From an uncultured Verrucomicrobiae bacterium (GTDB lineage: Bacteria; Verrucomicrobiota; Verrucomicrobiia; Chthoniobacterales; JAFAMB01): a stretch of DNA of 64,000 bases. Of this stretch, positions 1,288 to 33,367 are shown one piece after another (position 1 is the first letter of the stretch; every line of letters begins with the position of its first letter). Location of the stretch: the NCBI GenBank assembly GCA_963775805.1, contig CAVZKG010000004.1, positions 70,296 through 134,295 on the forward strand, in the 5' to 3' direction. Both the position numbers and the translations under genes were made by a program. The notes under the pieces were generated by a model. It made no database searches and was not told the origin of the DNA. It worked only from the letters and a program-made list of their open reading frames with translations.

Positions 1288-1318
1288 GTTGGTCAGAAGA
1301 GACGTTTCAGCTGGCGAG

Positions 1319-12422: not shown

Positions 12423-12423
12423 T

Positions 12424-18400: not shown

Positions 18401-20865
18401 GCCACATCGACGTCGATGAGTGAGCAGGTCAGGCCCTCGTTTTTCCAGGTTGCGACAATCGATTCCAGGCAAGATGCATCCCCGGAAAGCACGCTCGAAC
18501 TAGGACTGTTGAGCCCGGCGACAAACACTTTTCCGGTCAATTCTTGAATACGCGCGGCGACATCCGCTTCAGAAAGTTCCACGACAGCCATCCCACCGCC
18601 TTGCCCAGTCCGCGATTGGGCTCGGCTAGACTCAACAACGACCCGCATCGCATCCTCGACCCCTAGAGCACCGGCTGCGCATGCGGCAGCCCACTCGCCC
18701 AGGCTGTGAGCCCCGACAAAGTCAGGTCGTACACCCCAGGAATTCCAGAGATCGGCGAGAGCCACCTGAAAAGCAAAGAGAGCCGGTTGGACCACTTCCG
18801 TGCGGTTCAAACGAGACTCGTCAGGCGTGGCAAGCAACTCGTCGAATAGCGACCACTCGGCAAATTTGGCAAGCGCATGGTCACATTCAGCAAGTTTTGC
18901 CCGGAACCGGGGCTCGGTCTCGATCAGACTTCGCCCCATTCCAAGCCACTGCGAGCCTTGTGGCGAAAAAATGAATGCCAGTTTCGGTCGGACTGCCGGA
19001 GCGCGCCCTATCGCGATGCGTGGGTGTTGTTCGCCCTTTAGAAATGATTTGAGGAGCGTACATAGTTCCTCCGTTGAGCAGGCAGTAAGCGCGACTCTTT
19101 CGGGTCCCGAGTTGCTGTGCTTCATGGCATTGGCGCAGATTTCCGCCAATTTGTGTTTCGGACCTCCAATAGACAGACCAACTTGCAATTCCTCTGCGAT
19201 CCGCTTTAAAGTGACCGGATCCGCTCCGCTTAACGGCAGCAAATGAATGTCACTGCGCATCCGTTCTTCGACGACAACGTGGCAGTTGGTTCCTCCCCAA
19301 CCAAACGCGCTTACACCTCCGACTGCCGGCTTTGCTGGCTCTGGCCAAGTCTCGAGCTCCGTCACGACGCGAAGGCGTGAACTGGCAAAATCGATGTAGG
19401 GATTGGGGCTGCGATAATTCAGGCTTGGCGGAACTTGTCGGTGATAGACTGAAAGTACGAGTTTAATGAGACCTGCGATTCCTGCCGCGCCCTCAAGATG
19501 GCCGATATTGGTCTTAACGGAGCCGATCAATAATGGCTGACTCGCCGGTCGGTCCTTGCCAAAAACTTCGCCCAGCGCATACGCTTCAATTGGATCGCCA
19601 AGAGGGGTCCCGGTTCCATGCGCCTCGACATAATGAATATCGGTGCCAGCGAGATGCGCGCGTGCAGCGGCTTCTTGCAGAACGGCTTCCTGAGCAAGCG
19701 GATTTGGAGCAGTGAGGCCGTTGCTGGCCCCGTCGTTGTTAACGGCGGTTCCGCGAATCACCGCGTAGATTCGGTCTCCCTCGGCCAGCGCTTGGTTTAA
19801 CGATTTCAGAACAACGAATCCACCTCCTTCGCCGCGCACAAAGCCATTCGCTCCGGCGTCGAATGCAGAGAGTTGGTCGGTCGGAGAAAGGCCACCGAAT
19901 TTCGAAAGTGCGACGGTGGTCTCTGGATCAATAATCATATTCACGCCCCCGGCGATCGCCAACGTGCTATCACCGGCTAACAGGCTTTGACATGCTAGGT
20001 GAACGCTTACCAGAGAGGAAGAACAGGCCGTGTCCAGGGCGATGCTGGGGCCCTGAAATCCCACCGCGTACGAAATTCGATTCGCGACAATGCTGAATGC
20101 TTGTCCGGTTCCTGAATGGATCGTGATCTCCGCACCCGTTTTTCGGGCGATAGTTTCGTAGTCGTGCCAAACAACTCCGACAAACAATCCTGTACGGCTG
20201 CCTCGCAGGGTTTCTGGGTCGGCGCCCGCGTTTTCAAGCGCTTCCCACGTTAGCTCGAGAGCCAAGCGCTGTTGAGGATCCATTTGATCCGCTTCGCGAG
20301 GGGAGATTCCAAAAAAGCCGGGATCGAATTGGTCAATCTGTTCGAGCAGACCAGCTCTCCGCGAATTCATTTTTCCTGGTGAGCCGGGATTCGGATCGTA
20401 CCATGCGTCAATATCCCAACGCTGCTGTGGAATAGGACGAATGGCACAACCTCCCGTTCTCAACAGTTCCCAGAAAGCTCCAGGAGAAGGTGCGCCAGGA
20501 AATCGACACGCAATCCCAACTACGGCAACGTCAAGTTGGCGGTTCGACGCCGAAGAAGAGCGGGTAGTTCGATTGTTCGAACTTGATTTCTCCGTTGTAC
20601 ATACATAATTCGCAAGTGTTTCGACTGTCGGATAGTTCCATACGAATGTTAGTGGAATTTTCCGACCCAGGTATTCGCCCATTCGGTTCAGAAGACCGAC
20701 GGCTTTGATGGATTCAAGCCCCAGGAGACTGAACGGCTCGTTTGTAGGAACCGTTTCGGGCCGGACGCCGAGTGCACGGGCAAGCTCCTCTACCAGCCAG
20801 CCTTTTACGGCCTCCACCTGAGGGCGGTTATTTTCTGATTTTTCGCTGACGGCGCTATCCTGCAT
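12424..20865 (-). CDS. Type I PKS, combined loader + first extension module: ACP-KS-AT-AT-DH-MT-KR-ACP
   Basis: 2813-aa ORF. N-terminal carrier domain: LLGLESIKAVGLL. KS: DTACSSS/EAHGTGT/KTNIGHLE. AT no.1: GAHSLGE, Ser instead of Arg at +25, VAAHS. AT no.2: GHSVGE, Arg +25, YAFHS. DH: HRVFGAIVVP, LLDAALQ. MT: LEIGAGTGGTT...SNVLHATRD. KR: TGGLGGMG, SYAAANAF. ACP: LGLDSLMGFEL. Confidence 0.93.
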   Translation of the reverse strand: MQDSAVSEKSENNRPQVEAVKGWLVEELARALGVRPETVPTNEPFSLLGLESIKAVGLLNRMGEYLGRKIPLTFVWNYPTVETLANYVCTTEKSSSNNRTTRSSSASNRQLDVAVVGIACRFPGAPSPGAFWELLRTGGCAIRPIPQQRWDIDAWYDPNPGSPGKMNSRRAGLLEQIDQFDPGFFGISPREADQMDPQQRLALELTWEALENAGADPETLRGSRTGLFVGVVWHDYETIARKTGAEITIHSGTGQAFSIVANRISYAVGFQGPSIALDTACSSSLVSVHLACQSLLAGDSTLAIAGGVNMIIDPETTVALSKFGGLSPTDQLSAFDAGANGFVRGEGGGFVVLKSLNQALAEGDRIYAVIRGTAVNNDGASNGLTAPNPLAQEAVLQEAAARAHLAGTDIHYVEAHGTGTPLGDPIEAYALGEVFGKDRPASQPLLIGSVKTNIGHLEGAAGIAGLIKLVLSVYHRQVPPSLNYRSPNPYIDFASSRLRVVTELETWPEPAKPAVGGVSAFGWGGTNCHVVVEERMRSDIHLLPLSGADPVTLKRIAEELQVGLSIGGPKHKLAEICANAMKHSNSGPERVALTACSTEELCTLLKSFLKGEQHPRIAIGRAPAVRPKLAFIFSPQGSQWLGMGRSLIETEPRFRAKLAECDHALAKFAEWSLFDELLATPDESRLNRTEVVQPALFAFQVALADLWNSWGVRPDFVGAHSLGEWAAACAAGALGVEDAMRVVVESSRAQSRTGQGGGMAVVELSEADVAARIQELTGKVFVAGLNSPSSSVLSGDASCLESIVATWKNEGLTCSLIDVDVAAHSPQMDSAAEILRASLTGLNPARATTQFVSSVTGDHVAGGELGPEHWAQHVRRPVLFRSVVERLSRDGCTLFLEISPHPLLVGAMRQNLGALDAEGIAIGSCRRTENERLSLLKSAGELYVRGWPIDWQLVERDGQDNVALPAQSIPRWQEAPVDLRTEKLYVLPVSGHTANALRDQARSFRRWLEEKRDTSLADFVYTAAARHAHLEHRMAVVGGHREALCSTLREFAEGGNPSNAFVGTVRSGAQSQIALVCSGQGPQWWGMGRELMASNPAFRMEVARCADEVRRHATWDLLDELRRNEPESRLHKTEFAQPALFALQIGLAAVWRSWGINPFAIVGHSVGEVAAAYLGGILSFEEAVLVVCTRARLMQRAENSGRMAALEINRSAADRLIGKHFGRVSVAAINGPSSIVISGEATAINEIVEAAKSEGARSKILQGVYAFHSPLMEPFLTEMTDSVSGLTTRKARVPVYSTVTGALSTNEDFGAAYWKRNIREAVHFADAVFAMLDAGVNAFVELSPHPVLCSAILQCAASVSRKAHVFPSLRHARSDRQQMFESLGGIYAAGAKIDWSTVYPDGGRVAELPTYQWQRTPHWFEAPPTPVLSTVSIPSLKSAQRSLNHRKLSSPGIRGFIYESSLHPASLGFLRDHRVFGAIVVPAPLMTEMVFSCATEAFSSTPAEVDDFVVHRPLILTENRERIVHVVLEPSVDGVAGFELHSAERLEETELDWALHATGRLIVRRGPLRQDLDSPERLEIDAVLSRCAAAISENDYYELFAARGAQFGPAFRVVEQANAGRSETIARIRLPERLASERSDYLIHPVLLDAALQTIVLTRIHTAGKRETEESLWGFGGFRRLRALRSTATQLICHAVLVPPENATPSILRGDVRVSDENGRIVAEIEAVHFHPISPDSLTSSEDRIASGMLFGVEWKPWSSPAQMLRRSDPLYLPDIEQCENRLRTELAKHPTESDAETETIAALDVVSANLVIRTFQELGWAPAPGDHISTEELIRKLGIAPQHTRLVARMLQILCEEGKARAVRDEWEVIARLPQDRSALTIHDLNDRYPQYRAELDLFERCAGHLSEVLRGVCDPLQLLFPEGSVEKTTHFYEGSRMARGPNQLVREFLQEVVETLPPGKVLRVLEIGAGTGGTTAHLLPLLKDVPCEYVFSDVSKLFLENARKRFSEYPFVRYLLFDVEKSYKLQGITERHFDVIIASNVLHATRDLRRSLANTESILASGGLLALLEGIKPTRWIDLVFGMTEGWWRFEDTDLRSSHPLLSIEKWKELLLSTGYSDAGGIEANPENEPSIFEQAVIVAKTAPHPKIQVEIEKTGQADSRPCAWLVFGDGSALCETTIRSLKLRGNQVVRLDRGETFGTIAKGQFVIDASRPDRIRQAIDAALAATTLPCRHVVFLLGTNEQPEPGEIEPLYDQVVTLFSDALRAAQSIIGSPLQPTGPRLWLVTYGAQPPHPSRLPSLSGASLWGLGRVLAVEHPEIWGGSLDLDPDASIADNVEAIIEQITKPDKEDQSSIRDGIRFVPRLVQPRKTEATQMQVDWSIPGCYLITGGLGGMGLKIAQNLAAQGARKIVLVGRTPLPERATWENLHRGTPEFNRVSSVQEIEAEGAVVRTFSADIADEQDILKVIKILGDEGWLPVRGVVHAAAAADDRLVPQLDSKSFEAVFRPKILGTLALERCLSEEPLQFFVCCSSIGALLGQTGQTSYAAANAFVDAFVHHRRANKRHALGVNWGGWYGSGLALTPGGERTIKALEQRGILGFQPSLGVKTLDLLLQQGATQAAVMRMDWAKFRQTFPMGEEPPLLADIGAAAHPESVQRSSQVPARRFQEQMRDELLAISSGFARRAALEMHLKKLLAAVLKLDPNSIDIEKPMGMLGLDSLMGFELKNRCEQTTGTTLSATMVWNYPTIYALAGHLAEKMEVSLSDTVEAAVHDKKDVSGSTSTEGVSTVLADVEQLSDEDALNALLNGGRD
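14491..15528 (-). other. SAM-dependent methyltransferase domain (between DH and KR) in the 2813-aa PKS
   Basis: VLRVLEIGAGTGGTTAHLLPLL ... YVFSDVS ... DVIIASNVLHATRDL ... GGLLALLEG ... GWWRFEDTDLRSSHPLL. Confidence 0.75.
16711..17652 (-). other. Second (extender, malonyl-type) AT of the tandem AT pair
   Basis: CSGQGPQWWGMG ... GHSVGEVAAAYLGGILSFEEAVLVVCTRARLMQ ... YAFHSPLM. Confidence 0.75.
18061..18984 (-). other. First (loading-type) AT of the tandem AT pair
   Basis: FSPQGSQWLGMG ... GAHSLGEWAAACAAGALGVEDAMRVVVESSRAQS ... VAAHSPQM. Counting from the active Ser, position +25 is Ser, whereas the three active-site-Ser extender ATs and the GHGVG AT-like domain (counting from the Gly at that position) in this window all have Arg there. 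Confidence 0.65.
20596..20823 (-). other. N-terminal loading carrier domain (ACP/PCP-like) of the 2813-aa PKS
   Basis: WLVEELARALGVRPETVPTNEPFSLLGLESIKAVGLLNRMGEYLGRKIPLTFVWNYPTVETLANYV. The Ser is in GLES where GxDS is usual. Confidence 0.7.
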
Positions 20866-20874
20866 GCAAAGCGA

Positions 20875-21693
20875 TTAATATTGCGTCAATGTGCCCTCAA
20901 TCCGGCCCTTCCGAACCATCGCTGCAAAAACAGCCAGACTGAGAGGAAGGAGGATTGCCGCCATCAATCCCAGGGTGACTATCGGTTGGACGATCATACC
21001 TATTGAGTATCCTTTCAAGATTGTCAGCCTGAGCGCATCAAGGGAATAGGTGATTGGAATCAGAAACGAGATTTTTTGAACCCACGCTGGAAGGATGTCG
21101 ATTGGAAAATAAGCGCCCCCAAGCATGGTGCCCATCCCGCCGAGTATCCAGGCAAGCGGATCACCTTTCTTGAGCCACAGAATCGTTGCTGCCGACAACA
21201 CTCCGAATGCAACGAAAGTGAGAAGCGAAAATGCTAGAACCAGGATTGTCGAGAGAATATTCACGTGGCTGAGATTAACACCCATCACAAGCACTCCGGC
21301 GGCGATTATTACCAAAGGTTGCAACGCTCCGGAAATCAAGCCGTACAAAGATGACATCAGCACGATCGTTAGTGAATCGGTCTGGCTGCTCAGCATCGCC
21401 TCCAGGCATCCACTTAGCTGAGCTGCACGAATCGAGTCTGAGAACATCCTGAGCGTCAATTGAAAGTACCGAGCAAATGCAACGCCGATCACCACAAATG
21501 CGAGGTAGTTTCCACCATATCGGGCCGTAAATCGCGAATCTCCGCTGGATACTAATCCGTTAAGAAAGTAGAAAAAGATCAGGACCATCAGCGAGTCGAT
21601 GGCGTTCATTACAAAACTCATTTTGTAACTCGACTCGATCTGGAAATCGCGTCTGATAAAAGCGGCAGCTTTGCGTATCAATAGGGCCATCAT
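20875..21693 (-). CDS. ABC-2 type transporter permease (exporter membrane subunit)
   Basis: 272 aa and strongly hydrophobic, with about 6 predicted TM stretches. The N-terminus MMALLIRKAAAFIRRDFQIESSYKMSF is typical of ABC-2 permeases. Its start overlaps the stop of the ATPase gene (21690-21693). Confidence 0.8.
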   Translation of the reverse strand: MMALLIRKAAAFIRRDFQIESSYKMSFVMNAIDSLMVLIFFYFLNGLVSSGDSRFTARYGGNYLAFVVIGVAFARYFQLTLRMFSDSIRAAQLSGCLEAMLSSQTDSLTIVLMSSLYGLISGALQPLVIIAAGVLVMGVNLSHVNILSTILVLAFSLLTFVAFGVLSAATILWLKKGDPLAWILGGMGTMLGGAYFPIDILPAWVQKISFLIPITYSLDALRLTILKGYSIGMIVQPIVTLGLMAAILLPLSLAVFAAMVRKGRIEGTLTQY

Positions 21694-22499
21694 CGTTTCA
21701 CCGCCACGTTTTGACGATAATAGTCGGAAAGAGAGATCCCTCGCGCATTGACATCCGCAATATGGTCGTAAGCCATTAGCTCCCCTTCATTGATCACCAG
21801 AACTCTGTCGCATAGCTTTATTGCTTCTTCGAGCTGGTGTGTCGCGATCAGGATCGTCTTGCGAGAGCCCTTGTGAAGCCGTTCGTTGATCAACTCGATC
21901 AAGTCTTCGCACGCGACAGGATCGAGTGTCCGGGTAGGCTCATCGAGTATCAGCACTTCGGGCTCTGCGATCAGGCCGCGTGCCAGCGCCAAACGCTGTT
22001 TCATTCCCGACGAATAAGTTGAAACGGGTTTGTCCACAGTTTCTTCGAGTCCCACAAAATGGACTAGCTCTCGAATGCGTTCACTCATGCTCTCTCCGCT
22101 CAAGTTGTCGAGTGCAGCGAAGAATTCGAGGTTCTGCGTTCCTGTTAGTCGCCAAAAAAAACTACGCTCTTCGTTCATAACGAATCCGACTGATCTTCTC
22201 GCCGCAGCGTTATGGCGCAAGGTGTCGTGACCGTTCACCAGGATGTCGCCTTCTGTGGGAAGTAAAAGTCCTCCTACAAGTTTGAGAAGAGTTGTCTTCC
22301 CGGCGCCATTTGGTCCCAACACCGCAACCCGGTCGCCTTTTGCGATTTCGAGGTTGATTGATTTGAGGGCGGTGAAAAGGCGCCTTGCCTTGAACGGAGA
22401 CAATAAGATTTCCCGATAACGTTTAGCGATCGGAAATCGCATCGACACGCTTCGCGCTGAAATCAGACCCTGGGTTGGAACGGCTGAACTATTTGGCAT
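21690..22499 (-). CDS. ABC transporter ATP-binding protein (partner of the ABC-2 permease)
   Basis: Walker A GPNGAGKTT, signature YSSGMKQRLALARGL, Walker B LILDEPT. The ORF track starts at 22673, but that extension runs inside the NRPS TE region. I use Met59 (MPNSSAVPTQ, ATG at 22499), which overlaps the NRPS stop by 11 nt. Confidence 0.85.
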   Translation of the reverse strand: MPNSSAVPTQGLISARSVSMRFPIAKRYREILLSPFKARRLFTALKSINLEIAKGDRVAVLGPNGAGKTTLLKLVGGLLLPTEGDILVNGHDTLRHNAAARRSVGFVMNEERSFFWRLTGTQNLEFFAALDNLSGESMSERIRELVHFVGLEETVDKPVSTYSSGMKQRLALARGLIAEPEVLILDEPTRTLDPVACEDLIELINERLHKGSRKTILIATHQLEEAIKLCDRVLVINEGELMAYDHIADVNARGISLSDYYRQNVAVKR

Positions 22500-25400
22500 G
22501 CAGCGGAGTGTTTTCTCCCTGGACGCTTGCAAGACATTTGAGGAGTCGTTTTGCGATCTCTTCTCCATGCAGATACCGAGTCCAGTGGTCGCCTCGTGTG
22601 ACGTGAACTTCGAGACCACCCTTCGGTACGCCACGCCAGCCCATGTTCTTGTCGAAGCTGTGCTGCTTTTCATTTATTATCAATGCGATACTGCCCGGGT
22701 AGGTCTTAACTCGATTGCGATACATTGTTCGCATATAGTCCATTCTTAGTTTGTATAGGCGGCGAGTGGCCGATACCTCCTCGGTTTTTGTCTCTTCCGC
22801 GCCGAGCTTGCGGCGACGCAGATCTTCTAGGATGGCCGACCGTGAGCTTCCAGTGCTCCGGATAATTTGAGCGAGAACATGAATAATATGCTTTGCCCGA
22901 TTCCATGCATTGTACAAATCAAGCCCCAAGGAGCGAAGCACGGTCGGTCGGTGAGTATCAAAAAGGACGAGCAAGCGGACTTCTTCGCCCTGTTGCATGA
23001 GCTTTTCGGCCATGACTAGCGCTACAACACCGCCGGCGCAGTCACCTCCGAGAATATAAGGACCTTTTGCTTGGACGCCTCGAAGTTCAACCAGGAACTC
23101 TGTCGCTACCTCGTTCGCATCTCGGTACCGATCTGACACTCCATCAAGCCAGCGCGGTTGAAACCCGTAAACGGGCTGATCGAGACCAACATGAGGAATG
23201 AGTCTGGAAAGGACACGGAGCGTATCGTCTGCATCCATGAAGCCGGCTACTAGAAAGAATGGTACCCGTGAGCCCTTCGGCTGAGCTGGGACTAGCCGGT
23301 TCCATCTGCAGATTTCGCCTGCGTGATAGTACCTGTCGGCATAGTCGTCGTATTTGATCGTCTTGGACAGCCCAGCAATTGTTGGCTCGATGAAGATACT
23401 TCTCAAAGGGAGATCTATTTTAAATATCGACTCCAAACGCGCGACAAGGCGCGTCGCTGAAAGCGAGTGCCCCCCAAGTTCGAAGAAATGATCAAAGACT
23501 CCGACCTTCGGAATCTCCAGGATTTCACTCCAAGCGTCGGCCATTATCTGCTCTACCTGGTTGCGGGGAGGTACGTACCCCCCTGTGGAATCCGGCTCGT
23601 TTGATTCTGGAGCAGGCAGCGCGTTTCTGTCGACCTTTGCATTCGGCGTAAGAGGAATGCTGTCCAGAAATACAAAGCCGGAAGGAATCATGTATTCGGG
23701 CAGGACAGATTTGAGGCGATTGCGCAATTCCTCGATCGTCGGACGCTGAGAACTTGCTGAAACGACGTATGCTGTCAAGCGCACGTCGCCTGTGTTCGTT
23801 TTGCGAGCTGCTACTACGCACTCTCGTACTCCTGGGTGCGAAGAAAGTGTCGCCTCAATCTCGCCTAATTCGATACGATAACCTCGGATCTTGACCTGGT
23901 TATCAACACGTCCAAGGCACTCCAGACGTCCGTCCGAAAGATGCCTGCCAAGATCACCTGTCCAATACATACGTGTTCCCGGGCGAAACGGATCCGAAAC
24001 AAATTTTTCGGCGGTTAATTCCGTCCGGTTAAGATATCCGCGGGCGACACCGTCGCCGCCGATCCACAAGTCTCCCACCACTCCGCGCGGCACCGGTTCG
24101 AGATTTTTATCCAGTACGTATATTCGCGTGTTGGCGATCGGTCGCCCGATTGTTACCTCGTTGGATTCAATTTGAGCGATCGCCGACCAGATCGTTGTCT
24201 CCGTTGGGCCGTACATATTCCAGGCCGATTTGCATGCTCCAACCAAGCGGAGTGCCATTTCACGGTCCATGGTTTCACCGCCGCATAAGGCCGTTAACCG
24301 CTGGTTGCCTCCCCAACCTGACTCGAATAATAGGCGCCACGTCGCAGGGGTCGCTTGCATTATGGTCGCTCCCGAGTCTTCAAGAACATGTGATAAAGCG
24401 ACTCCGTCTGTAACCGTCTCTCGGCTCGCCACGTGGATCCGTGCTCCGGTGGTTAAAGGCAAGAATAATTCCAAGGCCGCGATATCGAAAGCCGGCGTCG
24501 TTACCGCGAGGAATATATCTACCTCATTAATTCCCGGCTCCCGGGCCATTGAACACAAAAAATTGGTTAGCGCTTTGTGTTCAATTTCGACTCCTTTGGG
24601 CAGACCCGTTGAACCGGAAGTGTAAATGACGTATGCCCGGTCGGACGACTTTGCGATAGTCGGTATCGGTGCGTTGTCGTGCTGTTCAATCGCGTCCTTG
24701 TCGGCGTCCATGCAGACCTTTGTGAGCGTCGAATTCGAAAATAACGTTTCGAGAAGCCCTTTCCGGGTGATTAGCACTCTTGCTCCGGAGTCCTCGAGCA
24801 TGTATCGCAGACGTTCCGCCGGAAAGGCGGGATCCAATGGCAGGTAGGCGCCACCGGCCTTGAGGACAGCCAAGAATCCGACGACCATCTCTAATCCGCG
24901 CTCGATGCACACGCCGACCAATGACTCCGATCCAACTCCGAGCGATTGGAGATGCCGTGCCAAACGCGTAGAAATGGTGTCCAGCTCTTCATACGTGAGT
25001 CCGACCTTTTCGTATCTAACCGCTTCGGCATTCGGTCTGCGGACGACCTGTTGCCGAATGAGGTCTACAACGGTTCGCTCCTTTGGATAGTCTCGGTCGG
25101 TTTCATTTAGTCCTGCTACCAGTTGCTCCCGCTCGGTTCTTGTGAGGATTGGAATTTGCGATGCATTGGTATCCGGTAAAACCACTACTGCCTGTAGCAG
25201 CGTTTTGTAGTTCTCCGCGAGCTGCGTGACCGTCGAATCTTCAAATAGATCCGGGTTGTATTTTAGAACGCCACCATAGGCCCCGGACTTCTCAATGAGC
25301 TCGATTGACAACTCAAATTGACCTTCTTGTTGTGGAATCCAGAACTGTTCCAGAACCAGACCCGCAAACTCGGTTTGCACGCCGGACTCCCCGTATCCGA

Positions 25401-26670
25401 CGATCTCTTCGAGTCCCGCGATTTCTTTGAACTTTTGGAGAATAAATACGGTTTGGAATACAGGTGTGCGCGAAAAATCACGATTTGGGTGCAGCTTTTC
25501 GACTATTAGCGGGAAAGGATAATTTCCATGACGTATGCCGTCGACGACCGCTTGGCGGACCTGTGCAAGAATTTCCCGGAAGGTTGGGTCATTGTGAAAC
25601 GACCCTAACAGCGGAATCATGTTGATAAAGTCACCAACGATATTGCCGAACTCCGGGCGATCGCGACCGTACGTCGGCGACCCAACAATAACCTCCTGTT
25701 GACCGGTATATCGGTGTAAAAGAATGTGATAGGCTGTCAGCAGAACAACGTATGGAGTTGTATTTTCTGCGGCGGCTAGAACGCGTACCGCCTTGCTGAG
25801 TTCCGCGCCCAGATCGACAGGAACCGATGCACCTATTTCAATTAACGAAGCCTGTCGCGGACGATCGGTTGGCAAGTTGAGAGACGAATGGAGGCCCGAA
25901 AGTTTGGATATCCAATAGTCTTCGTGTTCCTTCCCCTCGGGACTCGAGAGCATTGCTTCCTGCCAACGTGCGTGTTCGAGAATATCGTGCCCGGGACGGG
26001 GCGGCGGCGGCGCAGTTCCGCCCCTTTCTGATGGATAGATTTGACGCAAATCGTCTAATAGCAGGAAGAGTGACCAACCGTCCGCGGCAATGTGGTGGAC
26101 GCTGAAAACTAGCACGTAGTCGTCAACCTCACGCGAAAACAGGTCGACTCGCATGAGCGGACCGTTTTGCAGGTCGAACGGGGCTCGAGAAGCCTCAAGA
26201 ACTTCTTTTCGCAGCGCTGGCAATTCGATACCGGGCCGACTATGAAGTTCGAAATGGACCGGCATATAGCCATGAACCACTTGGTTAAGACCATTCAAAT
26301 CGGCGCGAAATGTAGTGCGTAACGAAGCGTGCCGATCTACCAACGCTTGGAACGAGCGGCGCAAAGCAGGCAGATCAATTGAGGACCGAATCCGAGCTGA
26401 AAAGACCACGTTGTACGCGGCGCTCCCAGGGTTCGCCTGATGCACGAACCAAAGGGCTCGCTGCCCATGGGAGGCCGCTTGAGTGACAGTTTCGCGGGTG
26501 GCGCGCTCGCGCCAGTCGACTAGAATCGTATCTTTTTGCGATGCCAGCTGCGATCGCAAATTCTCGGTGAGGGTCCCTTTTGTCGCTCGATACCGAAGCC
26601 GGCTTCCTTCGCCCCAGACCGTCACCCCTTGTTCGCGAAGGGTATCCATCAATGCGATTTTATCGCTCAC
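22489..26670 (-). CDS. NRPS termination module: TubC-type docking domain - C - A - T - TE
   Basis: Dock: LREQGVTVWGEGSRLRYRATKGTLTENLRSQL. C: VHHIAADGWS. A: YTSGSTGLPKGV, NMYGPTETT, YWTGDLG, GRVDNQVKIRGYRIELGEIE, PNAKVDR. T: FFELGGHSLSATRL. TE: PFFLVAG...GPYILGGDCAGG...LVLFDTH...RGDHW. Confidence 0.95.
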   Translation of the reverse strand: MSDKIALMDTLREQGVTVWGEGSRLRYRATKGTLTENLRSQLASQKDTILVDWRERATRETVTQAASHGQRALWFVHQANPGSAAYNVVFSARIRSSIDLPALRRSFQALVDRHASLRTTFRADLNGLNQVVHGYMPVHFELHSRPGIELPALRKEVLEASRAPFDLQNGPLMRVDLFSREVDDYVLVFSVHHIAADGWSLFLLLDDLRQIYPSERGGTAPPPPRPGHDILEHARWQEAMLSSPEGKEHEDYWISKLSGLHSSLNLPTDRPRQASLIEIGASVPVDLGAELSKAVRVLAAAENTTPYVVLLTAYHILLHRYTGQQEVIVGSPTYGRDRPEFGNIVGDFINMIPLLGSFHNDPTFREILAQVRQAVVDGIRHGNYPFPLIVEKLHPNRDFSRTPVFQTVFILQKFKEIAGLEEIVGYGESGVQTEFAGLVLEQFWIPQQEGQFELSIELIEKSGAYGGVLKYNPDLFEDSTVTQLAENYKTLLQAVVVLPDTNASQIPILTRTEREQLVAGLNETDRDYPKERTVVDLIRQQVVRRPNAEAVRYEKVGLTYEELDTISTRLARHLQSLGVGSESLVGVCIERGLEMVVGFLAVLKAGGAYLPLDPAFPAERLRYMLEDSGARVLITRKGLLETLFSNSTLTKVCMDADKDAIEQHDNAPIPTIAKSSDRAYVIYTSGSTGLPKGVEIEHKALTNFLCSMAREPGINEVDIFLAVTTPAFDIAALELFLPLTTGARIHVASRETVTDGVALSHVLEDSGATIMQATPATWRLLFESGWGGNQRLTALCGGETMDREMALRLVGACKSAWNMYGPTETTIWSAIAQIESNEVTIGRPIANTRIYVLDKNLEPVPRGVVGDLWIGGDGVARGYLNRTELTAEKFVSDPFRPGTRMYWTGDLGRHLSDGRLECLGRVDNQVKIRGYRIELGEIEATLSSHPGVRECVVAARKTNTGDVRLTAYVVSASSQRPTIEELRNRLKSVLPEYMIPSGFVFLDSIPLTPNAKVDRNALPAPESNEPDSTGGYVPPRNQVEQIMADAWSEILEIPKVGVFDHFFELGGHSLSATRLVARLESIFKIDLPLRSIFIEPTIAGLSKTIKYDDYADRYYHAGEICRWNRLVPAQPKGSRVPFFLVAGFMDADDTLRVLSRLIPHVGLDQPVYGFQPRWLDGVSDRYRDANEVATEFLVELRGVQAKGPYILGGDCAGGVVALVMAEKLMQQGEEVRLLVLFDTHRPTVLRSLGLDLYNAWNRAKHIIHVLAQIIRSTGSSRSAILEDLRRRKLGAEETKTEEVSATRRLYKLRMDYMRTMYRNRVKTYPGSIALIINEKQHSFDKNMGWRGVPKGGLEVHVTRGDHWTRYLHGEEIAKRLLKCLASVQGENTPLHAK
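22516..23283 (-). other. Type I thioesterase domain with a Cys nucleophile (GGDCAGG; Cys codon TGC at 23038..23040)
   Basis: Residues ~1130-1385 of the NRPS. The alpha/beta-hydrolase TE pattern is PFFLVAG ... VYGFQ ... GPYILGGDCAGGVVALVMA ... LLVLFDTH ... RGDHW. I read the DNA as gga ggt gac tgc gcc ggc ggt. Confidence 0.8.
23617..25083 (-). other. Adenylation domain, hand-extracted specificity code D-I-L-Q-L-G-M-I-W-K (glycine-type)
   Basis: Aligned by eye to the GrsA-Phe landmarks. FDIAALE gives D235 I236 L239. IMQATPAT gives Q278. ALCGGE gives L299 G301. WNMYGPTETTIW gives M322 I330 W331. PNAKVDR gives K517. Confidence 0.6.
26515..26664 (-). other. TubC-like beta-hairpin docking domain at the NRPS N-terminus
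   Basis: MSDKIALMDTLREQGVTVWGEGSRLRYRATKGTLTENLRSQLASQKDTIL matches the remembered TubC_N pattern (L..L...GV.LW.EG..LRY.AP.G.LT.EL...L...K..IL). Confidence 0.7.
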
Positions 26671-29600
26671 AGCACACCCTCCTCAAATTCGAGAACCGGT
26701 GCATTTGACCCTCTTGACATGTCAGGAGTTTGCATTGTGGCCAGCAGCTCGGTTATCCATTCTGTTAGCTCCGCAGGCGTTGGACCCTGAATGAGCTGCG
26801 CCATTGCGACACTCACACCCAAGTCGACATCGATTTGGTTCTTCAACTCGATCGACATGAGTGAGTCGAAACCCATCGCCGATATTGGCTTTTGGGGTTC
26901 AACCGAGTCAATCGGTACCTTGAGAATTCGGGCTATTACCTGCTTCAGATAATCCTGTACGAGGGTCGAGCGGTTACCGGCGTTCGTGGCCAGGATTCGC
27001 TCGCGGGTCTCGACGTCAGCGCTCTTAGCGGGAGATGTCGAACCTTCCCCAGAAACCAGCAGCGACAGATAAGGGGCGATTGCCATATCGCCGTAGGAGC
27101 GCCGCCACTCCTTCCAATCGATAGGCATGACTCCGACTTGGATATCCCCTTCATCCAGGAATAGTTCCATGGCCTCCAAAGCTTCCTGATTCGACAATGT
27201 GCCGATCCCTTTCGTGGCTCCAGTCCGGCCATGGCGTTTCGATTCCTGTTCAGTCTGAAAACGGGTGGCCATTCCCGCTTGCTCCCAGGTACCCCAGTTC
27301 ACACTCAGCGCCGGGAGACCCATCGCTCGCCGATGGTGAGCAAGCGTATCAAGGAAAACGTTCGCTGCCGAATAACCTCCCATCATTGGCGAACCCAAGA
27401 GCGCTGACGAAGACGAAAATAGAACAAACAGTTCCAAAGGAACAGTTGCCAAGAACCGATGCAAAAGCCATCCTCCGATCATTTTGGGCGCCAAGACATC
27501 TCGTATTTGCTGCGGCGTCTGGTTGCAAAATGGTTCGTACTGCATCACGCCGGCGGCATGAAATACACCTCGTAGCGGCGGTTGACCGCCCAATAAGCAT
27601 TGGTTAACGAGTTCCCGCACCGATTCCTCGTTTCCCATATCGACAATTTTTGTTTGCACGTTTGCGCCCCGTTTCTCCAGTTCGCGAATCGCCGCAATCC
27701 GGGATTCTTCGATCGATCCCCGCTCAAAGTTGTTCCATTGCTCGCGTGAGGGCATTGCCGTCCGTCCTGCCAAAGTCAAATGACGGGCGCCATGAGCGAC
27801 CAGCCAATCGGCGATGACCAGTCCAATTCCACCTAACCCACCCGTGAGCAGATAATTTGCATCCGGCCGGATCGAGATCGGGTCAGACGTTGACCTCATT
27901 TTCGACCGCCGCCCCAAGCGGAGGACGTGCTCCCGTCCGCCGCGAAAAGCAAACTGGTCATCAGCGCTACGTTTCTCTAACCGTGCGGCCAGCATATCGG
28001 CCGCTGCGTCCGGAGTATCACTCGGATCAAGGTCAAGTTGCCCGCCCCAGAAGTCAGAACATTCCATCGCGATGGCGCGACCAAATCCCCAGAGCGGAGA
28101 TTGAAGCAAGGAAATAGGGGAAGGCTTCGAATCTGCAGGTTGCGCACCTGCGGTGATCAACCACAGCTTCGGAGGAACCGTTAGCCGCAGGCGATCGAGC
28201 GATTGCGCGACCCTCAAAACGCTGATCGGTCCGAGTGACTGAGCATCTTGAAGAGCTGCTAGGTCAGCGCGTTCGAGGGTTTGCGCGTCAAGACTCCACA
28301 GATGCACAACACGCTTTAGCTCAGGTGTCAGCTTCCTTGCTTCGGAGAAGATTTGGTCATAATCAGAGGCTTGGTCGCGCCGAATCGTAATGAGTGCTTC
28401 GCCCGAACGGGAGAATTGATCCCCGTAATCCACACACAGGCATGTTGCTCCTCGTCCTCTCAGTCGTGCGCACAGTGCGTCGCCAACCCCTTGACGATCG
28501 CGAAAAATGACCCATGTTCCGGTCGCCGATGCGTCTGGAGCCCGTTCGAGATCCCTGTCACTCGGAATCCATCGAGGTTCGTAAAGCCAGTTCTGCACGT
28601 TTCGGAGCGCCTTCTCTTGTTGTTTCGAGTCCAAGTACCACAGCCGCGCTCCGATCGTCTCTGTGATGAGGTTTCCGGCGAGGTCGAACACTTTGACGTC
28701 GCCGACTAGGGTGTTATCCGCAGTAGAGTCCCTGCCGCGAATTTTTGCATAAGCGTAGAATCTTCTGCCCTCAGGCCGCCGATATAGTCGGACTTCGTCG
28801 ATACCCGCACCGACAAAGGCACCACCAAGAGCATCGTTCGATTTTTCAAGAGGAATCGTTGCGGTGAGGATGTGCCCCAAACTATCCGCAAGAGCCGGGT
28901 GAAAAACATAACTCGAGGTCTCTTGTTCGATGCCGATTGGGATTGTCACCTCGCTTAACGCTTCTCCGTTTCCCTGCCAGATCCGAGTGACGCCTTGAAA
29001 GCAGGGTCCCCACTGGTTGCCCCGATCGCTTTGCAATCGATAGAACTCGCTCCCATCCAAGGAACGGGTCAAGTTCCTTTGAAGTGCTACTCGTTCGAGT
29101 TCGTTCCATTTCTCATCCGGAATCCGGATCTCTCCGGTTCTCAGCGCACCCGTGGCGTGCAGTGTCCAATTCGTATTTCGATTTTTTCTTCGGCTGTGGA
29201 TCTGGAACTCAATGATTCCTGAACCCTGTTGCGCGAGGCGAGTTTGGATCTCAAATGTTCGACCCGACTTAAGTTGCAGTGGTCTCGCTATGTCGATCCG
29301 TGTCAAAACCACTGGCAATTCCGAAATCGCTTCGACGGCGGCAGCAATGGCCATTTCGACATACGCAGTCGCAGGGACGACGGATACGCCTTGTACGCGG
29401 TGGTCGTCGATCCAGGAGACTTTTTCCAGACTGATCTCGCCAAACCAGATATGCTCTCCTGGATGGAATGCCAGAGGTACATGCGTTCCAAGTAAGGGAT
29501 GACCGTCAGTCCGTTTGAGGTCGGGGTCAGGGCTCGAGACGGGAATCCAGTGACGCTTCCGTTGAAATTGATAGTTCGGTAGCGTAACGCTTTTGCGACG

Positions 29601-32300
29601 ATACGGTTTATCATAGGACCGCCAATCGGGGGTTGCGCCCGAAACAAAGAGCGCTCCGAGGCTCGACAGCATTTGATAGTGATCCGTCACCGCCGGATTT
29701 AACGAAGTTAGCCATGTCGTCTCCGAGTCTTGCAGACATTGGCGACCAATGCGCGCAAGTGTCGAGGAAGGTCCGACTTCGAGGAAGGTCCGGATCCCGC
29801 GAGTGTGCAGAGTTCGCAGCGATTCTTGGAATTGGATTGGTTCGCGGAGCTGTCGACGCCAATATCGAGCATTCAACGGTAAATCTTCGTCCACCAGGTG
29901 CCCCGTAAGAGTGGAGATCATGTCTACTTTTGGGATGGCACACGGAAGGCCTTCGGCAAATCGCTCTAGTTCTCCCAGGATCGGCTCAACAAGCGGTGAA
30001 TGGAGCGCGTGCGAAGACGACACCAATTGCGCATCGATGCTCAGGGAGCGGAAACGTTCAATTAAACGGTGAATAGCGTCCGATCTCCCAGAAATTACCG
30101 TGTTTTGTGGCGAGTTTACTTCGGCGATAGCGACCAAATCGGCATAGCTTGTGATTTCCTTCCGTACTAGTTCCTGTCCGGAGAACACGCGGGCTATCGC
30201 ACCATCCCGGGGTAAATTTTGAATGAGGCGCGATCGGAAGGCTACTAAACTTATCGCGTCCTCGAGAGCCATCGCCCCTGCAATACAGGCGCCTACATAT
30301 TCGCCTACGCCGTGGCCAAGGATCGCTGACGCTTCAATTCCCCAAGAACGCCACAGGGAAGCAAGCGCATACTCGAGTGCGAACAGAGCTGGTTGGCTGT
30401 AGCGAATTTCATCGGGAATGATCTCAGATTCAAAATGGTCAACGTAGTGGAGGAGTTTCAATAAAGGACGATCGCAGTGCTTGGTAAGCGCAACTGCGCA
30501 TTCCTCAATCGCATTGCGGAATATCGGTTCGGTTTCATACAGGGTCCGTCCCGCGCCCCTCTGTTCCGTTCCTTGCCCAGCAAACAAAAATGCGACTCTG
30601 GAGTCGGAGCGAACGCGCCCGTGCACGAGTTCGGAATTCAATTGACCCAGAGCGAAATCATTGAGCGATTTGCACGCTATCGCAATCTCTGGCGCTGAAA
30701 AAGCCAAGCGGTGGGAGAGGGGTGATCGGTCTGCCATAGCCGAATGACAGATGTCCGCTAAAAATTGTTCTGTGCCTTCTCCGAAATGCTTGGAGTACGT
30801 CAAAGCTAGTTCCTTCAACGCAGGCTCGGTGTCGGCAGAAAGAACAAACAGGTGGACTGAACGATCCTCCCGCGCCGGTTCGGTATCTAACTGCTTTTCA
30901 GGAGGTGGCTCTTCCAGAACAACGTGGGCATTCGTGCCGCTAAACCCGAACGAACTTACTCCTGCCAGACGCGGACGCCAGGATCGGGGCCAACTCACCG
31001 TTTGAGTGCAAATCTCGATCGGTGCCTGACCTAAGGAAATTCGTGAGCTGAGCTTTTGAAAATGAAGCTGAGGCGGTATTTCCTGATGCCCCATCGATAG
31101 GACCACCTTGATTAGGCCCGCGATGCCCGCGGCTGACTCAAGATGTCCTAGGTTGGTTTTTACCGATCCTACACGCAACGGCTGATTTGTCGGGCGATTC
31201 TTACCAAGAACCTTCGCCAAAGCTTCGAGTTCGATTGGGTCGCCGATCGCGGTTCCGGTGCCATGGGCTTCCACGTAGTCCACATCTTCAGGTTGGATGC
31301 GAGCAGCCTTCAACGCGGCTCGAACCACGCTCTGTTGCGCCAGCCCGTTGGGAACGGTCAATCCGCTACTTGCACCATCCTGATTGACTGCACTGCCGCG
31401 GATCAGGGCCATGATTCGGTCTCCTGCCGCCACTGCGTTGTGAAGACGTTTCAACGCAACGACGCCGCACCCTTCCGCTCTTACGAAGCCATCCGCCCTC
31501 TCATCGAAAGTCTTGCATCGTCCATCCATCGCCATCATGCCCCACTTTGCAAAACAGACGAACGGTTCGGGTGTAAGAAGCATGTTGACCCCGCCGGCCA
31601 GTGCCAGGTCGCACTCGCGCGCGCGAAGACTCTGGCAGGCTAGATGGACAGCGACCAACGAGGACGAACACGCCGTATCAATTGCGATGGATGGCCCGGT
31701 GAAACCGAACACAAAAGAAAGCCTGCCCGCTGCGACGTTTAGTGCTCCACCGGTGGCAGTATAGACATCGAGACTCGCTGAGCTGTTTGCCGCCAATCGA
31801 GCGTAATCGGAAGTTGTTATCCCGACAAATACTCCTGTCGGCGATCCTCGCAGACTATTTGCGGCAATCCCCGCGTTTTCCAAAGCTTCCCAAGTGACTT
31901 CCAGCAGAAGTCGCTGTTGGGGATCCATGCTCTCGGCTTCCCTGCCTGAGATGCCAAAAAGCCCTGCGTCAAAGCGGTCGACCTGATCCAGAAAGCCGCC
32001 AAACGGCGCGTGCATTTTACCGGGCGCGGACGGGTCCGGATCGTAGTATGCGTCCTTGTCCCAACGATCGGGCGGCACTTCTTTGATCGCATCGACGCCA
32101 TGGCTCAAAAGTTTCCAATAGGCTTCGGGATTGTCGGCCCCTGGGAATCTGCATGAAAGGCCGACGACAGCGATCGGTTCGTCCTGGGAGCGTTCGGCAA
32201 TTTCGAGACGGCTTTGGAGCGAATCAATCGCCTCCATAGCTTTTCGCAAAAGGACCTTACGCTCGCCTTCTTGGCGAGCGGCAATGTTGAGATCTGCCAT
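26667..32300 (-). CDS. Type I modular PKS, KS-AT(like)-DH-KR-ACP; first gene of the operon
   Basis: 1877 aa. N-terminal coiled-coil dock: RKVLLRKAMEAIDSLQSRLEIAE. KS: DTACSSS/EAHGTGT/KTNLGHLE. AT-like: FAGQGTEQRGAG, GHGVGE, SHALHS. DH: HRVQGVSVVP, LADSLGH. KR: TGGLGGIG, GGYSAANVF. ACP: MGFDSLMSIEL. The stop overlaps the NRPS start (ATGA-type coupling at 26667-26670). Confidence 0.95.
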   Translation of the reverse strand: MADLNIAARQEGERKVLLRKAMEAIDSLQSRLEIAERSQDEPIAVVGLSCRFPGADNPEAYWKLLSHGVDAIKEVPPDRWDKDAYYDPDPSAPGKMHAPFGGFLDQVDRFDAGLFGISGREAESMDPQQRLLLEVTWEALENAGIAANSLRGSPTGVFVGITTSDYARLAANSSASLDVYTATGGALNVAAGRLSFVFGFTGPSIAIDTACSSSLVAVHLACQSLRARECDLALAGGVNMLLTPEPFVCFAKWGMMAMDGRCKTFDERADGFVRAEGCGVVALKRLHNAVAAGDRIMALIRGSAVNQDGASSGLTVPNGLAQQSVVRAALKAARIQPEDVDYVEAHGTGTAIGDPIELEALAKVLGKNRPTNQPLRVGSVKTNLGHLESAAGIAGLIKVVLSMGHQEIPPQLHFQKLSSRISLGQAPIEICTQTVSWPRSWRPRLAGVSSFGFSGTNAHVVLEEPPPEKQLDTEPAREDRSVHLFVLSADTEPALKELALTYSKHFGEGTEQFLADICHSAMADRSPLSHRLAFSAPEIAIACKSLNDFALGQLNSELVHGRVRSDSRVAFLFAGQGTEQRGAGRTLYETEPIFRNAIEECAVALTKHCDRPLLKLLHYVDHFESEIIPDEIRYSQPALFALEYALASLWRSWGIEASAILGHGVGEYVGACIAGAMALEDAISLVAFRSRLIQNLPRDGAIARVFSGQELVRKEITSYADLVAIAEVNSPQNTVISGRSDAIHRLIERFRSLSIDAQLVSSSHALHSPLVEPILGELERFAEGLPCAIPKVDMISTLTGHLVDEDLPLNARYWRRQLREPIQFQESLRTLHTRGIRTFLEVGPSSTLARIGRQCLQDSETTWLTSLNPAVTDHYQMLSSLGALFVSGATPDWRSYDKPYRRKSVTLPNYQFQRKRHWIPVSSPDPDLKRTDGHPLLGTHVPLAFHPGEHIWFGEISLEKVSWIDDHRVQGVSVVPATAYVEMAIAAAVEAISELPVVLTRIDIARPLQLKSGRTFEIQTRLAQQGSGIIEFQIHSRRKNRNTNWTLHATGALRTGEIRIPDEKWNELERVALQRNLTRSLDGSEFYRLQSDRGNQWGPCFQGVTRIWQGNGEALSEVTIPIGIEQETSSYVFHPALADSLGHILTATIPLEKSNDALGGAFVGAGIDEVRLYRRPEGRRFYAYAKIRGRDSTADNTLVGDVKVFDLAGNLITETIGARLWYLDSKQQEKALRNVQNWLYEPRWIPSDRDLERAPDASATGTWVIFRDRQGVGDALCARLRGRGATCLCVDYGDQFSRSGEALITIRRDQASDYDQIFSEARKLTPELKRVVHLWSLDAQTLERADLAALQDAQSLGPISVLRVAQSLDRLRLTVPPKLWLITAGAQPADSKPSPISLLQSPLWGFGRAIAMECSDFWGGQLDLDPSDTPDAAADMLAARLEKRSADDQFAFRGGREHVLRLGRRSKMRSTSDPISIRPDANYLLTGGLGGIGLVIADWLVAHGARHLTLAGRTAMPSREQWNNFERGSIEESRIAAIRELEKRGANVQTKIVDMGNEESVRELVNQCLLGGQPPLRGVFHAAGVMQYEPFCNQTPQQIRDVLAPKMIGGWLLHRFLATVPLELFVLFSSSSALLGSPMMGGYSAANVFLDTLAHHRRAMGLPALSVNWGTWEQAGMATRFQTEQESKRHGRTGATKGIGTLSNQEALEAMELFLDEGDIQVGVMPIDWKEWRRSYGDMAIAPYLSLLVSGEGSTSPAKSADVETRERILATNAGNRSTLVQDYLKQVIARILKVPIDSVEPQKPISAMGFDSLMSIELKNQIDVDLGVSVAMAQLIQGPTPAELTEWITELLATMQTPDMSRGSNAPVLEFEEGVL
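29706..30599 (-). other. Acyltransferase-like domain with the catalytic Ser replaced by Gly (GHGVG; Gly codon GGC at 30309..30311)
   Basis: Residues ~568-865 of the 1877-aa PKS. I read the DNA directly: ctt ggc cac ggc gta ggc gaa = L G H G V G E. The upstream GQGxQ box also deviates (GQGTEQ). Arg +25 is retained. Confidence 0.8.
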
Positions 32301-32421: not shown

Positions 32422-32611
32422 ACGGTTAATCGACATTGGGCGCAATTTATTTAGCTAAATTGTCTTGCAGAACGCGAATAAATTGCAAAATGCAGACCTG
32501 CCCCAAAAAAAGCAAGTGTCTCCTCCAGCGTTTTAGTGCGTTTGTAGAGTTCGTTTGTCTAGAGCGCCCAGGTTTTCTATAACACGGAACAGCCAAGAGG
32601 AAATCGTTTGG

Positions 32612-33367
32612 ATGAATTTGGAAATCGTGAAAGGGGATTCCGCGTTGTTTACCCGCCGGGACGTGCAGATTTGGGGAATCTGGTTAACCGCGCCCGATTC
32701 GGTGGTCGGTCAGTATCAACTATTGCTTTCCGTCGACGAACGTCAACGGTCGGATCGGTTCGGCTCCGCAAAGTTGAAGAGCCTCTATGTTTTATCAAGG
32801 AGCGGATTGCGGATCTTGCTCGGCCACTATCTCAATTCATCGCCAGAAAAGATAGAGTTGACTCACAGGCCAAACGGGAAGCCGGAGTTGCGAAGTGCGG
32901 TACCGCTGCGGTTCAACGTTTCGCATTCAGGGCAGATGGCGGTCTACGCGTTCACGGTTGGCTGTGAATTGGGTATAGACATCGAAGAACTCCGTCCGCT
33001 GGAAGATGCAGAGGCGATCGCGGCACGCCACTTTTCGAACGCCGAGATTAGTGAATTACGATCTCTGGAAGGTGAGGAGAGAAACCTGGCGTTTTTCCGA
33101 TGTTGGACGCGAAAAGAGGCCTATCTGAAAGCGATCGGTGAGGGGCTTACCGTCCCGCTCGATTTGTTTCAGGTCACTCTCCTTCCGGAGACGCCGGCGC
33201 GGCTGGTTCACATTGGAGGGGATATCGCGGCTGCCGGCGATTGGATATTTCACAACCTCGACATGGCCCCGGGATACGTCGGAGCTTACGTTTACCGCGA
33301 CAAGCTGCGTCCGGTCACGATCTATCCGATGATTCGAGCCGACGAGCTCCCGGAATTGCTAGCGTAG
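32612..33367 (+). CDS. Sfp-type 4'-phosphopantetheinyl transferase
   Basis: FNVSHSGQMAVYAF ... LGIDIEE ... CWTRKEAYLKAIGEG are the PPTase motifs. The ORF track begins at TTG 32555. I prefer ATG 32612 (MNLEIVKG), which has an AAGAGG 11 nt upstream. Confidence 0.88.
   Translation: MNLEIVKGDSALFTRRDVQIWGIWLTAPDSVVGQYQLLLSVDERQRSDRFGSAKLKSLYVLSRSGLRILLGHYLNSSPEKIELTHRPNGKPELRSAVPLRFNVSHSGQMAVYAFTVGCELGIDIEELRPLEDAEAIAARHFSNAEISELRSLEGEERNLAFFRCWTRKEAYLKAIGEGLTVPLDLFQVTLLPETPARLVHIGGDIAAAGDWIFHNLDMAPGYVGAYVYRDKLRPVTIYPMIRADELPELLA

Follow-up and report, generated by a model that had tools for sequence, protein, structure and literature searches.

Recurrent loss of the catalytic serine from a full-length acyltransferase domain in a Verrucomicrobial PKS-NRPS assembly line, with a carrier protein that may be loaded in trans

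The 64,000-nucleotide stretch analyzed here (the window; positions 70,296 to 134,295 of contig CAVZKG010000004.1, assembly GCA_963775805.1, from an uncultured Verrucomicrobiae bacterium of soil known from metagenome-assembled sequence) carries genes for a polyketide synthase (PKS) and nonribosomal peptide synthetase (NRPS) assembly line. We focused our attention on its 1877-aa type I PKS, a protein with ketosynthase (KS), acyltransferase (AT), dehydratase (DH), ketoreductase (KR) and acyl carrier protein (ACP) domains, in which the AT is retained at full length and its catalytic Ser is replaced by Gly. Pfam placed the KS at aa 41-414, the DH at 934-1226, the KR at 1481-1673 and the phosphopantetheine-binding domain (PP-binding) at 1783-1849. 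The features of the module, with the nucleophile-less AT written as AT°, are as follows.

26667..32300, minus strand: 1877-aa type I PKS, KS-AT°-DH-KR-ACP (open reading frame (ORF) and Pfam)
30891..32180, minus strand: KS, with Cys211 (DTACSSS), His (EAHGTGT) and His (NLGHLE) intact (Pfam, motifs)
29634..30590, minus strand: AT°, full-length AT without nucleophile (Pfam PF00698; 4MZ0 alignment; invariant-column count)
30549..30584, minus strand: degenerate oxyanion/GQG box of the AT, first Gln retained, Q579E and M583A
30303..30317, minus strand: GHGVG in place of GHSxG, aa 662-666 (motif scan; 4MZ0 alignment)
30234..30236, minus strand: Arg689 present, the counterpart of FabD Arg117, which binds the carboxylate (alignment)
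30000..30011, minus strand: HALH, aa 764-767, with dyad His764 present and the invariant Phe766 of HAFH changed to Leu
28623..29501, minus strand: DH, HPLLGTHVP and DSLGH intact (Pfam, motifs)
27282..27860, minus strand: KR, with GGLGGIG, Lys, Ser and YSAAN intact (Pfam, motifs)
26754..26954, minus strand: ACP, with the phosphopantetheine Ser in GFDSL; a carrier that needs malonylation without an AT of its own (Pfam, motifs)

The AT was matched by Pfam PF00698 (Acyl_transf_1) at aa 571-889 with 176.9 bits (cut-off 32.7), over profile positions 2-317 of 319, and its alignment to the orthologues has one gap column and no indels, in agreement with the initial annotation of this DNA, which had described a domain intact in length; the extent given there (29706..30599) was slightly off, the Pfam envelope being slightly wider. 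That annotation had also read GHGVG where GHSxG is expected, which was borne out by the ORF translation: Gly664 is encoded by GGC on the coding strand (GCC on the plus strand) at 30309-30311, position 30311 holding the discriminating first base of the codon. A phmmer search of the PDB returned the CurL KS-AT structure 4MZ0 (298 bits, query aa 14-366, no large gaps), and Gly664 falls directly under the catalytic Ser in both CurL (GHSVGEY) and GfsA. The motif is therefore correctly assigned, and the misassignment that the initial annotation had allowed for can be set aside. On these alignments, the window AT is confirmed to be without the catalytic Ser.

Around the missing nucleophile, His663, Gln576, Gln636, Arg689 and His764 are all retained, the Arg at +25 and the HALH previously described as kept being located at Arg689 and aa 764-767. 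The oxyanion box, which had been called degenerate, indeed is: it reads FAGQGTEQRGAG, and its GQGTEQRGAG portion departs, by Q579E and M583A, from the box GQG[AS]Q..[GA]MG that is invariant in the orthologues with Ser (hereafter Ser-types). Compared with an active FabD-type malonyl-CoA:ACP transacylase, the domain has the His and the Arg, and lacks the GHSxG nucleophile and an intact oxyanion box. Being full-length and nucleophile-less, within a module that keeps the catalytic residues of its KS, ACP and reductive domains, it has the features of a natural AT° in a cis-AT module.

The protein was compared with 38 full-length orthologues (1871-1938 aa, 54-65% identity, same domain order) obtained from a search of 5.8 billion proteins, which gave a set of 39 with the window; those orthologues that are named come from the Verrucomicrobiota/Chthoniobacterales/Ca. 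Udaeobacter group. The AT is of the Ser-type in 36 of the 39, with GHS[LV]GE, the GQG-type box given above, the Arg kept and HAFH in 35 of 36 (P0018 has HPFH). The initial annotation had proposed a comparison of this kind, and its outcome is that Gly stands at the catalytic position in the window and in two further orthologues, P0009 and P0040. Ser-types use AGT or AGC and Gly-types GGC or GGT, which corresponds to a single AGY→GGY transition, as had been supposed for the window codon.

The divergence of the window protein was found to be concentrated in the AT. The AT is on average 54% identical to the 36 Ser-types, which share 73% identity with one another in this domain, while the corresponding pairs of values are 77.5 and 80% for the KS, 63 and 64% for the DH, 67 and 71% for the KR, and 64 and 67% for the ACP; the AT now stands at the level of the structural linkers of the same protein (49-52%). 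Moreover, 15 of the 79 AT columns that are invariant in the Ser-types are changed in the window (19%), in comparison to 2/145 in the KS, 1/37 in the DH, 1/31 in the ψKR, 1/47 in the KR and 0/11 in the ACP (0-3% in KS, DH, KR and ACP; Fisher test of AT versus others, p=4e-7), the leave-one-out background for a Ser-type sequence being approximately 1.5%. The changes outside the AT are all conservative (F→L, I→V, S→T, E→D, L→F). The ratio of AT to catalytic-domain divergence is 1.52 in the window and 0.985±0.087 in the Ser-types (z=6.2), which makes the window AT the strongest divergence outlier among the 39 proteins, with approximately 50 excess substitutions in the AT alone. Judged by these columns, the window AT is long free of catalytic constraint.

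The domain is closest to the orthologous ATs (55% identity, versus 31-41% to the other ATs of the window, the nearest paralogue being the AT of a 1512-aa PKS with 41%) and has no indels, so it descended vertically with its fold kept. We also considered that it might have been swapped in, or converted, from one of the other ATs of the cluster, which was ruled out by the same identities. A query with just the AT against the set of 5.8 billion proteins turned up no closer relative, the best matches having 53% identity, hence there is no sister sequence by which to date the loss. Peptides of the AT were also used to look among species genomes for its own genome or a near relative, and none of the 209 pattern matches was confirmed.

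In P0009 the motif reads GHGLGE and the equivalents of FabD Gln63, Arg117 and His201 are lost as well, and in P0040 it reads GHGLGE with a GQGGPLQAAG box and Arg changed to Lys. In a neighbour-joining tree of the non-AT columns, the three Gly-types do not form a clade, P0009 nesting with the Ser-types P0002 and P0003, and in an AT-only comparison each Gly-type AT is nearest to Ser-type ATs and least like the other Gly-type ATs. From these comparisons, the three losses appear independent. A single origin of the Gly allele followed by recombination, an idea that came from T632I being common to the window and P0009, was ruled out by the Gly-type ATs being least similar to each other, and the pairing of P0001 and P0040, seen in the tree built on the AT only, was dismissed as two long branches that are just 48% identical. 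Thr632 itself (~30405..30407) lies in the malonyl signature ETxYTQ and is invariant in the Ser-types; it is Ile in the window and P0009 and Pro in P0040, a replacement that we read as a parallel change in independently dead ATs.

The loss in the P0009 lineage is found in many samples. Its cluster (90% identity) has 26 members, with no fewer than six full-length copies of 1881 aa that stem from independent assemblies of JGI, ENA and NCBI (P0009, P0361, P0364, P0365, P0371 and P0372; the gene lies at 816..6461 of the related locus L001), and falls into two sub-lineages approximately 5% apart, both with S→G and Q→E. The former Arg is R689G in one and is kept, with R691H, in the other, and the former His has become H764E in one whereas the other has SH→AD. 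To judge from these copies, the P0009 lineage passes on the dead state, with the gene intact and the pocket still eroding. Seven AT-invariant columns are changed in P0009, four of them being the catalytic Gln, Ser, Arg and His (chance estimate ~2e-5), which suggests that charged pocket residues may be removed rapidly, or even under favour, once the Ser is gone.

Gly is also the usual replacement in a wider sample: a hidden-Markov survey of AT matches in the fetched proteins gave 281 Ser, 40 Gly and 3 others at the catalytic column, most of the 40 Gly cases coming from bimodular PKSs of the myxobacterial type, where they lie in AT remnants that are truncated. Among the amino acids one step from AGY, Gly should be the best tolerated in the strained nucleophile elbow, to go by what is generally known of α/β-hydrolases. 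Among the matches P0044-P0112, many bimodular proteins of ~3100-3250 aa have a short AT remnant in the second module (~115 aa matched, at ~aa 2050-2180), with x-G-x-G (QGVG, RGVG, LGVG and others) for GHSxG, e.g., P0050, P0059, P0061 and P0064 from Archangium/Vitiosangium; Ser→Gly is also seen in two more ATs of full length, P0075 (HGLG) and P0257 (HGVG). P0241, the best match of the AT, reads TQRLG and was considered as a fourth dead AT, but the motif sits in a garbled stretch between normal sequence that looks like a compensated long-read frameshift, and the candidate was ruled out.

The remaining genes of the cluster are listed below, in order of increasing distance from the 1877-aa PKS on its downstream side, followed by the divergent gene upstream.

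22489..26670, minus strand: 1393-aa NRPS with a TubC-type docking domain and condensation, adenylation, thiolation and thioesterase domains (C-A-T-TE); terminal module, which takes the chain from the ACP of the 1877-aa PKS (Pfam)
20875..22673, minus strand: ABC ATPase/ABC-2 permease pair, between the NRPS-TE and the loading PKS (Pfam)
12424..20865, minus strand: 2813-aa PKS, loading and first extension, ACP-KS-ATa-ATb-DH-cMT-KR-ACP, cMT being a C-methyltransferase (Pfam, motifs)
5736..12506, minus strand: 2256-aa PKS, KS-AT(GHSVGE)-DH-ER-KR-ACP, ER being an enoylreductase (Pfam, motifs)
1319..5857, minus strand: 1512-aa PKS, KS-AT(GHSLGE, HAFH)-cMT-ACP (Pfam, motifs)
1..1287, minus strand: start of a further PKS gene (docking helix/region and KS), which runs off the left edge
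32555..33367, plus strand: Sfp-type 4'-phosphopantetheinyl transferase, divergently transcribed

All synthase genes lie on the minus strand, with the 1877-aa PKS as the first gene of the operon, and their ORFs are unbroken over approximately 30 kb of the window (2813, 2256, 1512 and 1393 aa). The N-terminal ACP and tandem ATs of the 2813-aa protein indicate that it acts in loading and first extension, and the TE places the NRPS at the end of the line; from the positions of these two, the 1877-aa PKS is the penultimate module even though its gene comes first. The order PKS, NRPS-TE, loading PKS is also found at the related loci L001, L002, L005 and L007. Since the PKS gene at 1..1287 continues past the left edge, the assembly line is incomplete in the window. 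The other five ATs of the window, in four other modules, all keep the active-site Ser, in GHS[VL]GE or, in ATa, in GAHSLGE, which departs from the general absence of integrated ATs that marks trans-AT PKSs. As other modules hold integrated ATs that are active by motif, the synthase is, by this feature, not a trans-AT PKS; no discrete AT was found in the window, past whose left edge the cluster continues, or in the cluster starts of four related loci.

Several observations were made on the neighbouring genes. The 2813-aa PKS has a "mixed loading/first extension" layout with ATa at ~18001..18993 and ATb at ~16666..17658, and holds two ATs that are active by motif. ATb has GHSVGE and YAFH, and ATa has, together with GAHSLGE, SPQGSQ for GQGSQ, Glu for the carboxylate-binding Arg (VVESSRAQ) and DVAAHS for HAFH, a residue pattern as expected of an AT that loads a monocarboxylic starter; these features of ATa are common to Ser-type and Gly-type relatives (L001, L005, L007). 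The counterpart of the left-edge PKS gene in L003 and L004 is KS-AT-DH-ER-KR-ACP, followed by at least one more module in L003, which has the nearest relative seen for the left-edge KS (83% identity), and closing the cluster in L004. The ABC pair is degraded or inverted in L002 and has no counterpart in L001, L005 and L007, whose loading PKS comes directly after the NRPS; in the window, the 327-aa ABC ATPase ORF overlaps the NRPS by 185 nt, its real start probably being further downstream. L002, L003 and L004 (ENA ERZ25039475, ERZ25039496 and ERZ25039537) are long-read "contig_N" assemblies whose PKS genes are frameshifted into short gene calls. Such frameshifts mimic AT-less or fragmented modules and drop these relatives from full-length protein searches, and an apparently AT-less module in L004 (KS, then DH, then ER-KR-ACP) was ruled out as a gene-calling frameshift artefact of this kind, as tblastn shows the AT in another frame. 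Elsewhere in the window, a GalE has 80-85% identity to GalE of Verrucomicrobiota, Chthoniobacterales and Ca. Udaeobacter metagenome-assembled genomes, and outside the cluster there are genes for an nSTAND1 NTPase of 989 aa whose long coiled coil is tropomyosin-like (60732..63701, minus strand), a stand-alone MEKHLA-domain protein (48587..49045, minus strand) and a 1182-aa protein with PATR (autotransporter passenger) repeats (49157..52705, plus strand).

Taking domain and assembly line together, we consider it probable that the AT of the 1877-aa PKS is a fold-retaining, catalytically dead domain in a module that still extends the chain, its ACP receiving malonyl in trans. The nucleophilic Ser would have been lost by one A→G transition (AGY→GGY), after which the AT would have evolved like a structural linker, keeping length and fold while catalytic and pocket positions drifted, and it would probably now serve only as the scaffold of the KS-AT didomain. 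Each of the three Gly-type proteins still has the Cys-His-His of the KS, the His of the DH, the Lys/Ser/Tyr/Asn of the KR and the Ser of the ACP, which argues that selection on condensation, ketoreduction, dehydration and carrier function continued after the death of the AT. As the KS, DH, KR and ACP and the other giant synthase genes thus seem to have stayed under purifying selection, the module would still be extending the chain. The initial annotation had reasoned that an AT without Ser cannot form the acyl-O-enzyme, leaving either trans loading or no extension, and the AT-specific loss of constraint strengthens this reasoning. Of these outcomes the sequences favour trans-malonylation, most likely by another malonyl-specific transferase, for which the active cis-ATs of the same megasynthase and the housekeeping FabD are candidate donors, the sequence singling out neither. 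Ser-type orthologues carry the malonyl signature (ETxYTQ, HAFH), so any malonyl-specific donor should give the same product, and because a generic donor would have this effect, the loss could be near neutral, tolerated and recurrent.

Some points weigh against this reading. No free-standing AT was detected in the 64-kb window when an AT was searched by phmmer against all six-frame ORFs (which returned integrated ATs only), in a cluster that runs past the left edge. The independence of the losses is firm for P0009 versus the window and less firm for P0040, the trees being neighbour-joining without bootstrap on sequences 55-65% identical, and the nearest available DNA, ~65% identical at the protein level, is too divergent for codon-level dN/dS, as synonymous sites would be saturated. 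In addition, the DH of P0040 is eroded, with 9/37 invariant columns changed, and its contig (L002) has frameshifts in the loading PKS, so at least the P0040 lineage may be decaying rather than trans-loaded.

The other outcome of a Ser-less AT would be a non-extending module, in which the KS passes the chain to the ACP, or an ACP-to-ACP bypass occurs, with a product two carbons shorter in Gly-type strains. This would be the simplest biochemical consequence where there is neither a cis-AT nor a discrete AT in the window, it is in agreement with the conservation of the ACP and docking regions that pass-through requires, and passages of PMC9301873 link Ser-less ATs to skipping. However, a pass-through KS needs neither decarboxylation His, and both are kept in three independent lineages; the KR and DH would get no new β-keto substrate, yet they too are retained in these lineages, and the invariant columns of KS, KR and DH are essentially untouched in the window and P0009. 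Moreover, the last module at the far end of L004 is fully reducing (KS-AT-DH-ER-KR-ACP), which would leave nothing for the KR and DH of the present module. With these residues conserved, we regard non-extension, including the skipping that the initial annotation had also put forward, as unlikely; if it did occur, death of an AT would be a natural route to structural diversification. A broken pathway, in which loss of the AT ended production and the cluster is an early pseudogene array or a silent relic, seems to us improbable. In its favour, one Gly-type relative, P0040, has an eroded DH and adjoins a frameshifted loading PKS. Nevertheless, the synthase ORFs of the window are uninterrupted over ~30 kb, whereas neutral decay long enough for ~50 excess AT substitutions should also have damaged other domains and brought stops or frameshifts, and in the P0009 lineage the 1881-aa gene has remained whole over ~5% further divergence and in many samples. 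The frameshifts in L002-L004 come from one project's long-read "contig_N" assemblies and hit Ser-types too, and therefore look like assembly errors. Altogether, a dead pathway appears unlikely for the window and P0009, and possible for P0040.

Two readings concern the AT itself. It might keep a Ser-free activity, by direct CoA-to-ACP transfer, by another nucleophile or by having taken on a different function, for example in binding malonyl-CoA, in decarboxylation or in docking of the ACP, which the full length of the domain and the five retained pocket residues of the window (His663, Gln576, Gln636, Arg689, His764) would allow. We hold this to be very improbable: there is no new Ser or Cys at or beside the elbow to act as a substitute, Cys672 being common to all orthologues, and the other two Gly lineages have lost even the Arg, Gln and His, which is the pattern of a dead pocket; in addition, a passage of PMC11672594 cites that replacing this Ser abolishes AT activity. 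A sequencing or assembly error in a normal AT with AGC as the true codon is hardly credible, although one A/G difference is all that separates the Ser from the Gly codon, since 14 more Ser-type-invariant AT positions are changed, including the GQGxQ Gln, the GMG Met and the HAFH Phe, and changes at invariant columns are concentrated in the AT, which excludes the base-call error that the initial annotation had named as a possible refutation.

More speculatively, and in our view doubtfully, this Chthoniobacterales cluster family could show, as a time-series found in nature, how a cis-AT module becomes trans-loaded. In that case FabD or a different AT of the megasynthase could load the ACP of the last PKS module in Ser-type strains as well, with its own AT redundant and lost repeatedly, the Ser first and then Gln, Arg and His, while the fold is kept as scaffold. 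Inter-module sharing of ATs would then be normal in some cis-AT assembly lines, and the Gly-types would be living intermediates on the route from cis-AT to AT-less architecture. In any case, 36 live-AT orthologues set against three dead-AT lineages at different stages of erosion are a good comparative frame, and whether a cis-AT module runs without its own AT, and who loads it, can be approached by G664S or S→G swaps between orthologous clusters. The question bears on PKS engineering, where AT-null modules combined with a trans-AT are used for changing extender units, and the finding is also a warning for genome mining, as pipelines would score the window AT as a normal malonyl-AT.

Cis-AT synthases rarely contain a naturally dead AT, and what follows from one (trans loading, skipping, iteration) is mostly guessed. 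Bengamide, gephyronic acid and other systems are reportedly named as precedents of a Ser-less AT. In the modules of trans-AT PKSs, the KS is followed by a non-catalytic, AT-derived "docking" remnant and the ACP is served by an AT from outside the module; the window differs in that its AT is full length, other modules have active cis-ATs and no free-standing AT was found in the window. The mechanism proposed here has been engineered: Ser→Ala AT-null modules were rescued in DEBS module 6 with malonyltransferase or BryP, and in auroramycin AT6/9/10 with the disorazole AT (PMC6943886). As in our proposal, a cis-AT module without nucleophile extends when a separate malonyl transferase loads its ACP; those are, however, laboratory constructs whose donor was added or overexpressed and whose yields are often reduced, while the state of the window is natural and inherited. 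Passages of PMC9301873 call full ATs without the catalytic Ser in cis-AT modules, judged inactive from sequence, rare, and associate them with premature termination or module skipping. The window AT resembles those described there in being a full AT of a cis-AT module that lacks the nucleophile, and departs from that association with termination or skipping in that its conserved KS, KR and DH argue for extension.

In module 12 of the irumamycin PKS of Streptomyces, the Ser of GHS is replaced by Gly and other conserved AT motifs are poorly matched, and for its carrier the authors propose loading in trans by AT11 of the adjacent module, while also discussing module iteration (PMC11672594). Both cases concern a late module of a cis-AT line with a Ser→Gly AT. 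The irumamycin synthase, however, is an actinomycete macrolide PKS in which the module is directly followed by a TE, whereas the module of the window feeds a C-A-T-TE NRPS in a Verrucomicrobial cluster known from its genes alone; also unlike irumamycin, most orthologous clusters of the window PKS keep an active Ser-type AT, so that the loss is datable and is seen to recur. Overall, the finding belongs to an already described, uncommon kind and brings no new principle. What is new, as far as these sequences indicate, is that the same AT appears alive in most lineages and dead, independently, in up to three, with graded decay, in modules that are otherwise conserved.

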